The notes under the pieces are model-generated. The model did no database searches. It had not been told where the DNA came from and saw only the letters and a program-made list of their open reading frames with translations. Below are positions 6,840 to 64,000 of a DNA stretch of 64,000 nucleotides, piece by piece; within the stretch, counting starts at the first letter, position 1; each line of letters begins with the position of its first letter. A program made the translations under genes and the position numbers. This DNA is from a virus (Duplodnaviria; Heunggongvirae; Uroviricota; Caudoviricetes). The stretch lies in IMG/VR virus record IMGVR_UViG_2778261631_000002; one strand, 5' to 3'.

Positions 6840-6928
6840 TCTATACAGGCATGTATAACAACAACGAGCCTATTAGCTGTCAACAACGTTATTTCCTCAA
6901 ATAAGAAAAAGCAGAAAAAAAATTGTTT

Positions 6929-44954: not shown

Positions 44955-45110
44955 TTACCTTTCAGATTCGTAGGCTGTGAAGACAGTGACCTCCGTCTGG
45001 CCGGTTCGGATTCGTACCTCGCAGAGGTCTTTCCTCGTTACCAGTGCCGTCACAATGACGGTTAAACAGATGACGATCAGAGCGATTAACATCGCTTTTT
45101 GCTGCTTCAT
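44955..45110 (-). CDS. hok: Hok/Gef-family type I toxin
   Basis: 51-aa ORF MKQQKAMLIALIVICLTVIVTALVTRKDLCEVRIRTGQTEVTVFTAYESER with AAGGAG SD; hallmark Hok sequence. Confidence 0.8.
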   Translation of the reverse strand: MKQQKAMLIALIVICLTVIVTALVTRKDLCEVRIRTGQTEVTVFTAYESER

Positions 45111-45168
45111 AGCCTGCTTCTCCTTGACCTTTTGGTCGGTAAGAGGCTAATCTACGTATGCTAAGCAT
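44962..45168 (-). CDS. mok: Mok-like overlapping reading frame
   Basis: 68-aa ORF covering hok in another frame and starting upstream of it, as in hok/mok/sok loci. Confidence 0.4.
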   Translation of the reverse strand: MLSIRRLASYRPKGQGEAGYEAAKSDVNRSDRHLFNRHCDGTGNEERPLRGTNPNRPDGGHCLHSLRI

Positions 45169-45291
45169 AGATATGGCCTCAGATTAATGTTAAGCGTCTT
45201 GCAGGACGCGTAATGTTATCTGGGGCTTTCTTCTATCTGCTTTTCGGGTCATGCCTGAAGCAGATAGCCTCAAGCACCCGCAACGATTGTA

Positions 45292-48688: not shown

Positions 48689-48738
48689 AGTTACGGCCTC
48701 ACAATCAGGTTTAACAACCTGCTACCCGCTGCTAAACA

Positions 48739-48815
48739 GGTGGCAGGACGTGACGGGGTTAGCAGACTGGCGATTGTGAAACCAGCAGGCCGAAGCCTCC
48801 CCATCACGCCCCACC
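48739..48815 (-). ncRNA. c4: c4-like antisense repressor RNA (77 nt)
   Basis: Minus-strand GGTGGGGCG...CCTGCCACC with paired termini; contains CTGCTAA complementary to two GTTTAGCAG target motifs in the same transcript. Confidence 0.5.
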
Positions 48816-48935
48816 ATAATTTGGGCGTAACGCGGTTTTACGGACACAAAAATACCGCAATATCGGATATCTGCGGCTGTCCGCACAATCATTCAGGCTG
48901 CTAAACCCGGTCGCAGAATTTGCTACGACGGCGAA

Positions 48936-48964
48936 ACTATAAGCCTGAACGATTAAAAGGTCAA
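48936..48964 (-). promoter_or_regulatory. Sigma70 promoter of the c4-icd-ant operon
   Basis: Minus strand TTGACC - 17 nt - TATAGT. Confidence 0.6.
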
Positions 48965-58656: not shown

Positions 58657-58734
58657 TAATCACCCCGTCCGCAGGGCGGGGTGACAAGTTACTTATCTTA
58701 CAATGAGGCTTCACAACATTGATTAGGGAAAATC

Positions 58735-59169
58735 ATGTCTGACGTCTCAACAAACCTCTATAAGAGTCAGTTGTTGGACTATTACTATCAGCGGCGCGCT
58801 GAATCGTCCATTAACAAAGGCTCTCGATTTTTAATCAGCAAGGCCGTTTTCGGTACCAGTTCGCTGGTTACTAAGAAAGGAGATGGCACTTATGAGATTG
58901 GAGAACTGCCAAAGGCTTTCGAACTGGCAGAACTGACCAGTCAATTTTGCACCATCAACCTCGTCCCAACCTACTCAGGCGGGATAATTACTGTCCGAAT
59001 GGACCTTGATCAAAGCCAGTTGCAGGAAGGGAAAAACTACCCATTCAACACTCTGGTTGTTCTGGATAACGAGAACAAGCCAATCGCCATTATTTGTGTC
59101 CAGGAAGACTCGCTGTATGTGGGCAAAACATATACCGCAGTTATGGCCATAAACACGACTACAGCATAA
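58735..59169 (+). CDS. Tail-fibre-associated structural protein (P1 R-like)
   Basis: 144-aa ORF immediately upstream of the tail-fibre gene. Confidence 0.5.
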   Translation: MSDVSTNLYKSQLLDYYYQRRAESSINKGSRFLISKAVFGTSSLVTKKGDGTYEIGELPKAFELAELTSQFCTINLVPTYSGGIITVRMDLDQSQLQEGKNYPFNTLVVLDNENKPIAIICVQEDSLYVGKTYTAVMAINTTTA

Positions 59170-59180
59170 GGATATGCTTG

Positions 59181-62100
59181 ATGAATGACGTTACAGTTGT
59201 TACATCGGTTACTTACCCATCATCCGAGTCGTTGGCTCTGGTGGCCGATGTGCAATACCACGAACCATATCTGTCAGCCGCGCTAAACCGAAAATTCAGG
59301 GGGATTGTTGACCCGGGATTTTATGCCGGTTTCTTACCTAAGCCAGGCGGTGGGATGAACCTGTTAATTACCTCAGTGGATGGTGATAAAACCGCAGGCG
59401 CGGCGTCGGTGGATATTGGTGAATTTTACCAGGTAACTATTCAGCAACGTAAGGATATTTCTCTTGCACTTAGTGCAGGCAAGAAATATGCAATTGTGCT
59501 GAAGGGAAGATACCTCCTTGGAGAAGATACCTACCAGGTGAATACCGCGTCACATATTCATGCGGCTGAATTTGTTGCCAGAACCTATACCGATTCATAT
59601 CAGTTAGGAGATGGGGAGCTGCTTGTTTGTACGGTGAATATCCCTGCTAGTGTATCTGCCATTACCCAGGAGATGATTGATACATCCGAGCGTATCAACC
59701 GCTCGATCGGCATTGATATTTCAGACTCTGTAACCAGTACCAGAAGTGATGTTGCTGCAAGTTCGCTGGCAGTTAAAAAAGCCTACGATCTGGCGAAAAG
59801 CAAGTATACGGCACAGGATGCAAGCACAACGCAAAAGGGATTAGTTCAGCTCAGTAGCGCAACTAACAGCGACAGCGAAACAATGGCGGCTACCCCTAAA
59901 GCTGTTAAGTCTATAAAAGATCTGGCTGATACCAAAGCGCCAATAGAAAGCCCGAGTCTGACAGGAACGCCAACCGCGCCGACGGCAGCGCAAGGTACAA
60001 ATAGCACGCAGATCGCAAATACAGCCTTTGTTAAGGCAGCTATAACGGCACTTATCAACGGTGCACCTGGCACACTGGATACGCTTAAAGAAATAGCTGC
60101 TGCGATCAATAACGACCCGAATTTCAGCACAACTATCAACAATGCTCTGGCTCTTAAAGCTCCTTTAGCAAGTCCTGCATTAACGGGAATACCTACTGCG
60201 CCTACCGCTGCACAGGGTACGAATAACACGCAGATTGCTACGACCGCTTATGTAAGAGCTGCCATATCCGCATTGGTTGGTTCATCACCAGAAGCTCTTG
60301 ATACCCTGAATGAGCTTGCCGCAGCACTTGGCAATGACCCGAACTTTGCGACAACAATGACAAATGCGCTGGCAGGCAAACAGCCTCTGGATGCAACTTT
60401 AACCGCTCTCGCTGCCCTTGCGACTGGTGCAAACAAACTGCCTTATTTCACTGGTAAGGATACGGTAGCTCAGACTGATTTAACGTCAGTCGGTCGCGAT
60501 ATTCTGGCTAAAACAAGCACACTGGCCGTTATCCAATACCTTGGTTTAAGAGAACTCGGTACCAGCGGTGAAAAGATCCCCCTGTTGAGCACGGCTAACA
60601 CATGGAGTGCGCGCCAGACTTTCAACGGCGGGATCACCGGGGCGCTGACAGGGAACGCCGACACCGCGACGAAATTAAAAACAGCCATAAACATTAATGG
60701 CGTCAGGTTCGATGGTTCGGCTGACATTACGTTGACTCCTAAAGATCTGGACGTTTACAGCAAAAGCGAAATAGACAATAAAAAAGGGATGCGAAAATAC
60801 ACTTTTTCAGCGCCTGCAAATGCAGTAAGCGGTAAGTGGTATCCTATAGTCTTTCGCCGATCTGGAGGCAGTACCGATGAATTAGCCTCACGAGTTGTGA
60901 TAACTACTTATTCCTCAGCTGGCGGATACGCCATGAATAATTGTGAATTTAATGGGTTTGTTATGCCTGGCGGTTGGTCTGATCGCGGTTCATATGCGGC
61001 TGGTTTTTTCTCAATATATTCTACTGCTGAGCGAGCTATACACTCGATTATTTCAAGTGTGAAAGATGACGATTTGTGTAGTGTATTTTACGTTGAAGCC
61101 AGAGCATTTCCTATCAAGATATTTGCTGAGGAGGGCTTGAACGTAATTGTTCCAACTACTGACTATACCGTTGGTCAAGCCACCTATAAGTGGGGGGCCA
61201 CAGATCCAGTAGCAGAAAGTACAAATACTCAAACCATTCTGGATTTTAAAAATGGACGTGGTTATTACTGCTCACATCAGTTTGTTTCAAGCCTTTCAGG
61301 AAATGCAGCAACAGCAACGAAATTAGCAAGTTCAATAAACATAGGTGGTGTATCCTTTGATGGTTCAGCCGATATAGATTTGCCTGGTGTGAATACAAAA
61401 GGTAATCAAGACACTACCGGTAATGCAGCGACAGCGACCAAGTTGCAGACAGCATGTACTATCAACGGCGTCTCGTTTGATGGTTCTAAAGATATTGAAC
61501 TTAACCCACGGTCTATAGGCACGATCAACTCCACAACAATGTCTTTTAGTGGTGGTGCTGGATGGTTCAAGCTGGCAACTGTAACCATGCCACAGGCCAG
61601 TTCCGTGGTTTACATAAGCCTGATTGGTGGTGCAGGGTATAACGTTGGCTCCCCGCATCAAGCAGGCATCTCTGAGCTGGTTCTGCGTGCCGGAAATGGA
61701 AATCCAAAGGGTATTACTGGTGCATTATGGCGACGGACCTCGATTGGATTTACTAATTTTGCATGGGAGAATACATCTGGTGATACCTATGATGTTTATG
61801 TTGAAATAGGTAATTACGCCACAGGTGTTAATATTCAGTGGGATTATACCAGTAACGCCAGCGTAACGATTCATACATCACCAATTTATACAGAGAATAA
61901 ACCAACAGGCCTGACAGATGGAACTGTATATGTAATTTACAGTTCGCACATTAAACCGACTGCTGCTGATGTTGGGGCGTTGTCATTATCTGGTGGTCAA
62001 TTGAATGGTGCACTGGGTATCGGAACATCCAGTGCTCTTGGCGGTAACTCGATTGTTTTGGGTGATAATGACACGGGCTTTAAACAAAATGGCGACGGTA

Positions 62101-62438
62101 ATCTGGACGTTTATGCTAATAACGTCCATGTTATGCGCTTTGTCTCCGGCAGCATTCAAAGTAATAAAACCATAAATATTACAGGGCGTGTTAACCCCTC
62201 GGATTACGGTAACTTTGATTCTCGTTATGTAAGAGACATGCGACTTGGTGGAGCATCTACATATAAACCAGCAAATAACACCTCGACATGGACGCATCAG
62301 GCACCATCAGGCTGCGTTTATACTGGCATTATAGTCCAGGATACCGGCTCGAATTCTGCCGATAATATTGGAGGTGTATATTACAGGCCGGTTCAGAAAC
62401 AGATTAATGGAACATGGTATAACGTGGCACAGGTTTAA
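59181..62438 (+). CDS. S: Tail fibre protein S (constant part plus currently joined variable part)
   Basis: About 1085 aa from the Met with AAGGA SD; collagen-like repeats; cix site at codon about 450; C-terminus ends INGTWYNV like the alternative Sv' segment. Confidence 0.8.
60529..60554. promoter_or_regulatory. cix crossover site of the Cin/Gin/Hin invertase family
   Basis: TTATCCAATACCTTGGTTTAAGAGAA; its reverse complement closely matches hix/gix consensus. Confidence 0.7.
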
Positions 62439-62442
62439 ATTT

Positions 62443-62970
62443 ATGCAGCATTTGATCAATATAACAGCGGGTAATCCAAAAACAGTTGAGCAATACCAGC
62501 TGACGAAACATTTTGATGTCATCTGGTTTTTTACAGAAGACGGTAAAAACTGGTATGAGGAACAAAAGAACTTCCAGGATGGCACGATAAAATTAGCGTA
62601 TGACAAAGATAACATCATCCGCTATGTGGAAAAGGATGTAACAGCTATCAGACCGGATGGATTAAGTGTTGTTGAAGTGCCGGATATTACTGCTAACCGA
62701 CGTGCCGACATTTCTGGTAACTGGATGTTTAAGGATGGCGCAGTTATTAAACGTATTTATACGGCAGAGGAATTACAGCAGCAGGTAGAAAATCAGAAAG
62801 CCAGACTTCTTGCTGATGCTGAATCAGTCATTCAACTACTAGAGCGTGCAGTAAGGCTGAATATGGCAACGGATGAGGACCACAGCCGACTGGAAGCATG
62901 GGAACGCTACAGCGTTCTTGTAAGCCGCGTGGATACGGCAAAGCCAGAATGGCCACAAAAACCTGAGTAA
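62443..62970 (+). CDS. U: Tail fibre assembly protein U
   Basis: 175 aa from [10 protein letters not shown]; paralogous to the convergent U'. Confidence 0.75.
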
Positions 62971-62974
62971 AAAT

Positions 62975-62998
62975 AAGGCCCGATAACGGGCCTTTTCT
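62975..62998. terminator. Bidirectional intrinsic terminator between U and U'
   Basis: AAGGCCCG-ataa-CGGGCCTT followed by TTTTCTC. Confidence 0.7.
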
Positions 62999-63531
62999 CA
63001 TTCTGGTTGTTCGGGAAACGTTACTGGCAGGATGGAGGTATCTGTAGATTCTACTTTCTGCGCATATAGCATCCACGCGGTTAATTTCTGTTTATTCTCA
63101 TCGGAAATGATGCCCAGCCGTAGCTGTGAGTCCCACAGTTGGGTTTTATCCCTGACAAGTTGCAATAGGCTTTGCTTTTCATTTTCAGCTTGTTGCCTCT
63201 GTTCTTCCTCGGTATAAGTTCGCTTTATCACTACGCCATCTTTGAACATCCATTTACCAGAAATGTCAGCACGGCGATTTGCAGTAATGTCAGCAACCTC
63301 AACCACACTTAAACCTTCTGGATTTATTGTAGATACGTCTTTATTTATAGCCACAATAACTCCATCTGATGTGTAAGCAATTTTTATAGTGTCATCCTGG
63401 AAGTTCTTTTGTTCCTCATACCAGTTTTTACCGTCTTCAGAATACAACCAGACAACACCAAATTGTCGCGTCAATTCATATTGTTCAACAGTTTTTGGAT
63501 TACCTGATCTGATGTTTTTTAAATGCTGCAT
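62998..63531 (-). CDS. Alternative tail fibre assembly protein U'
   Basis: 177-aa ORF, paralogue of U with a conserved N-terminal half. Confidence 0.75.
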
Positions 63532-63533
63532 AA

Positions 63534-64000
63534 TTAAATACTTCCCGCGTTATACCATGTACCATTGATACAATACTGCACCGGCCTTGCCTGAGTTGTA
63601 TCAATAAGTTCGTCCTTATTTGAGTTAATTGAGGCAGTAACAACATAACCAGATTTATCGTTCCATCCAGGACCATTCCATGTTTGCACAGACGATTTTG
63701 TACCTAATCGAATACCTGTAATAAATCGTGAATTACATTCTGCTTTGGTATATGCCCCAACATCTCCCGCAGATGGTTTACGTGTTGTAGTATAAAATTC
63801 CGACCAGTCGGCTTCAAAACCATAACCGTCACGCGCAGAACGATAATAAATACCGCCGTTCTTATAATTCACGCGGAACTGAACAGCCGGACAACTACCA
63901 GCTCCCATATAAAAATGGAGAATCAACGTAGATGCTCCACCAATATTAGCGTTATAAACCCCGCTAATCGAGTTCCATCCAACAGCTTTGTCATTTCCAA
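63534..64000 (-). CDS. Alternative tail-fibre variable segment Sv' (partial; lacks its own start, continues past the window end)
   Basis: Open frame ending [11 protein letters not shown] like the S C-terminus; expressed only after inversion. Confidence 0.6.

Follow-up and report, generated by a model that had tools for sequence, protein, structure and literature searches.

A P1-type invertible C segment carrying a mosaic tail-fibre allele in a P1-like plasmid prophage

The viral DNA IMGVR_UViG_2778261631_000002 (Caudoviricetes), a stretch of 64,000 nucleotides referred to here in its entirety as the window, ends within a group of tail-fibre genes. Our analysis indicates that this region is almost certainly a P1-type C segment, that is, a two-state DNA-inversion switch for tail-fibre specificity, and that it is situated in a P1-like plasmid prophage. 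A sequence-only reading had interpreted the same genes as an invertible host-range segment and was supported in all essentials. The system itself is already known, since it is the classical P1 C segment/Cin switch with a mosaic Sv allele, and there is little new in it. Since the early 1980s, the P1 C segment has served as a textbook case of inversion by site-specific recombination and of the switching of phage host range.

The window represents a P1-like IncY plasmid prophage of the Punavirus type. Megablast searches of phage records with the tail-fibre region placed it on P1 and on the P1 relatives P7, RCS47, D6, SJ46 and JL22, and the backbone of the window shows further P1-like features, namely three tRNA genes, a C4 antisense RNA with its targets, an IncY replicon and phd/doc. 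The sequence past the window end was represented by a 15.6-kb locus (L002) of the Escherichia coli plasmid pRHBSTW-00046_2 (CP056895.1; IncY, 98,203 bp), from which all window-equivalent coordinates were derived. CP056895.1 matched window 60400-64000 at 100% and the whole window at 99.98% identity, with 9 mismatches in 62.7 kb and one insertion sequence (IS) difference. It carries an IS3-family transposase insertion of approximately 1.2 kb (L004 5631-6859), which is absent from the window at about position 6860. Because of this insertion and the 9 mismatches, the plasmid has to be regarded as a very close relative distinct from the window molecule. Five IMG/VR loci matched an exact 41-mer of the window end, none of which was identical to the window; the same 41-mer was absent from the genome contigs searched. 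The features of P1 were taken from its GenBank annotation and from two summarising papers (PMC6906374; bioRxiv 10.1101/2022.07.24.501295).

Within the open reading frame (ORF) of S, the 26-mer TTATCCAATACCTTGGTTTAAGAGAA was found as a single copy on the plus strand (60529-60554). The 26-bp Cin-type crossover site that had been suspected in S is base for base (26/26) the annotated cixR site of P1 and unique in the window; in 100 shuffles no match with up to three mismatches to the 26-mer was obtained. The site is composed of two imperfectly symmetric 12-bp half-sites flanking a 2-bp core (TTATCCAATACC, TT, GGTTTAAGAGAA); the outer half-site belongs to Sc, the constant part of S, and the inner one to the invertible DNA. 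P1's crossover is annotated between bases 13 and 14 of the 26-mer, corresponding to window 60541/60542. The Din-type core AWACCNNGGTWT is present only once in the 64-kb window, at cixR.

An inverted partner site, cixL (TTCTCTTAAACCAAGGTATTGGATTG), was identified at L002 10680-10705, equivalent to window 65079-65104 and thus 1,079 bp past the window end. Its inner half-site is that of cixR, and its core AA on the plus strand reads TT in the inverted orientation. Since both sites have the same non-palindromic core and are inversely oriented, recombination between them would invert and not delete the intervening DNA. The outer half of cixL reads CAATCCAATACC in CP056895.1 and CAATCCTAAACC in P1, a difference of two bases. 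Searches with the 26-mer (up to 8 substitutions) and with the core AWACCNNGGTWT disclosed exactly two sites in the 15.6-kb locus and one in the whole window, which points to a simple two-state switch.

The recombinase gene cin overlaps cixL (L002 10685-11257, minus strand) and encodes a serine recombinase of 190 aa containing Resolvase (E=6e-50) and HTH_7 (E=2e-18) domains. The protein is 98.9% identical to P1 Cin, and its N-terminus MLIGYVRVSTNEQ includes the nucleophilic Ser9. The best solved relative was entry 3uj3, a 193-aa DNA-invertase (E=7e-88 over 182 aa), which we take to be Gin of Mu. The element annotated in P1 as 'enhancer of Cin-mediated C-segment inversion' is kept in 72 of 72 bases in the 5' part of cin (L002 11168-11239) and probably constitutes the Fis-binding recombinational enhancer called sis in P1, while the two predicted cin promoters deviate from those of P1 by 2 mismatches each. 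The presence of cin and a second cix site downstream had been anticipated. Both exist in the 99.98% identical relative, but the site lies some 1.1 kb beyond the window end and not immediately adjacent to it.

The 3' end of cin differs from that of P1, whose Cin has 186 aa. Because the outer half of cixL reads CAATCCAATACC and not CAATCCTAAACC, the P1 stop codon is gone and Cin is 4 aa longer, ending with ...QSNTLV and a TAA in the inner half-site (L002 10685-10705, window-equivalent 65084-65104). Cin of the relative is thereby read across the crossover point, and its stop codon resides inside invertible DNA. The Cin tail is the same in both orientations, since the inner half-sites are identical. 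Beside cin, a homologue of the holin gene lydC was detected (L002 11385-11570), which contains an in-frame TAG at codon 62, whereas P1 LydC comprises 93 aa. The gene was unannotated in the returned gene table of CP056895.1, an incomplete table that omits pseudogenes.

The two crossover points bound a segment of 4,550 bp, reaching from window 60542 to the equivalent of 65091. Gene S starts with the ATG at 59181, as it does in the annotation of the near-identical plasmid, and ends at 62438, giving a protein of 1085 aa. Its constant N-terminal part Sc (59181-60541, plus strand; codons 1-453 and 2 nt), the end of which was set at P1's annotated crossover position, harbors Phage_fiber_2 repeats (Pfam, E=7e-30); over aa 1-518, S is 97.9% identical to S of P1. 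The variable C-terminal part Sv (60542-62438, plus strand; 632 codons) stands in the expressed orientation in frame with Sc. It is followed by U (62443-62970, plus strand), a 175-aa tail-fibre assembly chaperone paired with Sv (Pfam Caudo_TAP, E=4e-33; phrog_136; 76.6% identity to P1 U). On the minus strand, the alternative chaperone gene U' (62998-63531; 177 aa; Caudo_TAP, E=7e-36; 83.6% identity to P1 U') and the 3' end of the alternative variable part Sv' (63534-64000; the last ~155 codons and the stop) are encoded, both of which are probably silent in this orientation, as judged by P1. Sv' belongs to Pfam gp37_C and is cut by the window end; in CP056895.1 its frame runs on to the second crossover at window-equivalent 65091.

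U and U' proved to be convergent paralogues with 58% amino-acid identity, and their genes share inverted-repeat DNA blocks of 160 nt (82%) and 167 nt (72%). Their description as opposed paralogues was hence justified, as was that of a bidirectional terminator between them. At 62975-62994, an intrinsic terminator is predicted whose hairpin (AAGGCCCG, loop ATAA, CGGGCCTT) scored on both strands; it has an 8-bp stem with 6 G-C pairs, a 4-nt loop and T-rich tails, being flanked by an A-run and a T-run. P1 possesses the same hairpin at the same place. For S and Sv', the assumption of clear paralogy held only in part. Sv and Sv' share terminal inverted repeats of 199 nt that are 98% complementary, both beginning at cix; the left arm (60531-60729) encodes the first ~63 aa of Sv, common to Sv', and the right arm lies at window-equivalent 64904-65102 (L002). 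Within the window, however, the similarity of the S C-terminus to Sv' is restricted to the last 54 nt (74%) and short patches, and in their middle parts Sv and Sv' have little in common.

Inversion of the segment in silico joined Sc in frame to Sv' and resulted in an uninterrupted S' protein of 972 aa, which is 96% identical to S' of P1. Both states thus fuse in frame, Sc plus Sv giving the 1085 aa found in the window and Sc plus Sv' the 972 aa.

Both orientations occur in nature. At least nine relatives with approximately 99% identity contain the flipped segment, namely the plasmids H28-H32, the E. coli genome records H53 and H54, CP063732.1 (L003) and the IMG/VR locus L007, so that the segment is not confined to a single orientation. 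The unflipped arrangement was encountered in H26, H27 and the IMG/VR loci L008 and L009. The plasmids H26 and H27 were assigned to the window's orientation because their match begins at the first base of the query. For H28-H32, the ~99% match starts only at query base 132, corresponding to window 60531, the first base of the repeat at cix, and a recombinase gene lies under that end. CP063732.1 is organized accordingly, with cin being followed by Sv and U and then by U', while Sv' is fused to Sc as an S gene of 1046 aa. Among complete E. coli genomes, H51 was unflipped and H52-H55 were flipped, H52 and H55 being the records that appear as H31 and H32 among the plasmids. With 10 plasmid records out of 72,556 and 8 complete E. 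coli genomes out of 5,426 covering at least 80% of the query, the allele is uncommon. In the automatic annotation of public relatives, the two S parts are entered as different genes, a 'tail fiber protein' and a 'phage tail protein', and the segment is not marked as invertible. A metagenome contig of 5293 nt (IMGVR_UViG_3300012281_000016, L006) exhibited the order cin-cix-[P1-type C segment]-cix-cin(inverted). Cin genes at both ends of the segment are expected if reads of both orientations were assembled together; an assembler artefact is also possible.

The comparison of L002 with the flipped L003 allowed the exchange to be located. The outer half-sites remain with Sc and cin, and four polymorphisms at arm positions 134-160 move with Sv. 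As these polymorphisms travel with Sv, the exchange must have taken place within the first ~130 nt of the arm, which is compatible with the cix core.

Several points speak against an active Cin-mediated host-range switch or leave room for other interpretations. The two orientations were observed in different isolates and not within one population. Furthermore, cin and the second cix site were seen in a near-identical relative and not on the molecule of the window itself, and the polymorphisms are so placed that both Cin action at the core and homologous recombination within those ~130 nt would fit them.

The segment might be a frozen relic, in which the C-segment architecture persists without inversion in this element and only the Sv/U set is ever used. 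P1-like plasmids with a truncated cin or a damaged C segment have been published (PMC6906374), the terminal repeats are shortened here (199 nt as against 636 nt in P1), the outer half of cixL differs at two bases from that of P1, and the premature stop in lydC of the relative betrays some decay in the lineage. Nevertheless, the full-length Cin with its catalytic serine and near-complete identity to P1 Cin, the perfectly conserved enhancer and cixR, the intact inner half-sites and core, the intact ORFs of Sv' and U' and the existence of both orientations among ~99% identical relatives render a loss of inversion very improbable.

Alternatively, the flips among relatives could have been generated by RecA-dependent homologous recombination between the 199-nt inverted repeats and not by Cin at cix. 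In favour of this, the arms are 98% identical over 199 nt, the polymorphisms confine the exchange only to the first ~130 nt, and in L003 positions 134-160 of the Sv' arm form a patchwork, suggesting gene conversion between the arms. On the other hand, a complete and conserved Cin/cix/enhancer machinery is located exactly at the repeat boundary, the repeat has its outer limit at the cix site, and inversion in P1 was experimentally found to be Cin-dependent (literature summarised in PMC6906374; bioRxiv 10.1101/2022.07.24.501295). We therefore consider this explanation hardly credible.

A shuffling system resembling Min of p15B, in which three or more crossover sites would allow many isomeric forms of the tail-fibre gene, would be in line with the three copies of a repeated GNA(A/D)TATKL...ING(V)xFDGSxDI motif in Sv, with a 78% complementarity of Sv and Sv' over an internal block of 119 nt and with the existence of P1 relatives possessing Min-type invertases (PMC6906374), but can practically be dismissed, as the 15.6-kb locus contains exactly two sites, the window one, and the recombinase is Cin by its 98.9% identity. 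A Min-like arrangement was accordingly rejected, no further crossover sites having been found in the relative's locus or in the window.

A two-state Cin switch of the P1 type thus accounts best for the data, and its operation can be envisaged on the model of P1. The late promoter LPs would transcribe R, S and U, with transcription ending at the hairpin after U, and gene S would be made up of Sc as its invariant 5' part and of the variable 3' part that happens to adjoin Sc. Cin, whose gene adjoins the far end of the segment on its outer side, would, assisted by a Fis-bound enhancer inside cin, pair the two inverted 26-bp cix sites, cut them at the central TT and exchange the ends, whereby the 4,550-bp segment is flipped. 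In the orientation present in the window, Sc is joined to Sv, and U would be co-transcribed; after inversion, Sc would be joined in frame to Sv' and U' be co-transcribed. Virions produced from the flipped state would possess a different receptor-binding tip and might adsorb to different hosts. In P1, cleavage by Cin at the core dinucleotide involves the enhancer and Fis, no expression takes place from the inverted Sv'/U' set, and switching is rare in lytic growth and accumulates in lysogens; fibres with S recognise the lipopolysaccharide (LPS) core of E. coli K-12 and C, while S' permits infection of O-antigen-bearing Shigella flexneri and E. coli O3 (PMC6906374; bioRxiv 10.1101/2022.07.24.501295; P1 record). 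By analogy, Cin may act at the core dinucleotide and require Fis in the segment studied here as well, its inverted genes may be silent, and its inversion may alter the host range.

The C segments of P1 and P7 are orthologous loci with the same order R-S(Sc|Sv)-U-terminator-U'-Sv'-cix-cin, and the colinear stretch is labeled in the P1 record as 'invertible segment of P1 DNA, inversion is catalysed by site-specific recombinase Cin'. Colinearity with P1 DNA amounts to 98% up to window 60729, is lost at 60730-62383 except for an island of 119 nt, returns at 62384 and from there on stands at about 91% over the remainder of Sv and over U, U', Sv' and cin. Hence, 1,360 bp of the Sv core in P1 are replaced here by 1,654 bp (60730-62383). 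As a consequence of this replacement, S comprises 1085 aa in contrast to 987 aa in P1, and the segment 4,550 bp in contrast to 4,256 bp; the terminal inverted repeats, 636 nt in P1, are shortened to 199 nt.

Beyond aa 518, the new Sv core displays only ~28% identity to S of P1. Many P2-like Peduovirus phages have tail-fibre tips that share ~91% identity with the last ~167 aa of S, the last ~315 aa are ~80% identical to fibre tips of Yersinia P2-like phages, and longer stretches of S share 65-87% identity with fibres of other coliphages and Yersinia phages. The C-terminus also matches two solved structures, the Mu tail-fibre protein S (5yvq) and a short tail fibre (9cuy). The P2-like hits that were inspected (tail fibre H, assembly protein G) have the tip in a fibre gene of a different backbone, whereas here a P1 backbone carries it as one of the two arms of an invertible cassette. 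The three copies of the GNA(A/D)TATKL...ING(V)xFDGSxDI motif lie at window 60655-60735, 61303-61383 and 61423-61503. The third copy is located inside the 119-nt block, which is 86% identical to the repeat of P1. These repeated motifs are probably joints for the exchange of tail-fibre modules.

Comparable invertible segments are known from other tail-fibre systems. The G segment of Mu with Gin and gix is alike in having a constant Sc, two opposed Sv and U sets, an adjoining serine invertase and an enhancer inside the invertase gene. Unlike the element studied here, Mu is a transposable phage and not a plasmid prophage, and the constant part of its S is unrelated in length. Cin and Gin are related as paralogues and not as orthologues. 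The Min system of p15B has six crossover sites and forms many isomers, in contrast to the two sites here. The plasmid p15B is related to P1, and its Din-family invertase acts on segments of tail-fibre genes (P1 record; PMC6906374). According to the P1 record, parts of the C segment are 92-94% identical in DNA to Mu.

Upstream of S, the sequence at 58686-58704 (plus strand) agrees with the late promoter LPs of P1 in 19 of 19 bases and probably drives an R-S-U operon, its promoter function being deduced from P1. Gene R (58735-59169, plus strand), colinear with R of P1, encodes a 144-aa tail-fibre structure/assembly protein (phrog_2032, tail fiber assembly protein; E=1e-84).

Some further features were noted on the P1-like backbone of the window. 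The tRNA genes for Met (CAT), Thr (TGT) and Asn (GTT) are found on the minus strand at 25712-25787, 27428-27503 and 27506-27581. A sok antitoxin RNA was detected at 45105-45279 (minus strand; Rfam, 113.9 bits), adjacent to which the hokD toxin is annotated in the relative; the hok/sok module and phd/doc thus stand together on this backbone. The region 48736-48942 (minus strand), which corresponds to the ImmI immunity region of P1, comprises the C4 antisense RNA (48736-48821) and an a1/b1 target element (48890-48942) upstream of the icd/antirepressor genes.

It is conceivable, though we regard it as rather improbable, that the P2-like Sv tip together with P1 S' constitutes a toggle of specificities that are not combined in P1, and that the threefold shorter repeats and the Cin extended by 4 aa measurably alter the rate or regulation of switching. 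P1-like phage-plasmids that circulate in E. coli of livestock, wastewater and human origin exchange the receptor-binding core in one of the arms and retain an intact switch machinery. Swapping of the Sv core bears on the prediction of the hosts that such elements, which are often carriers of resistance genes, can transduce, and is also relevant to the engineering of P1-based delivery vectors.

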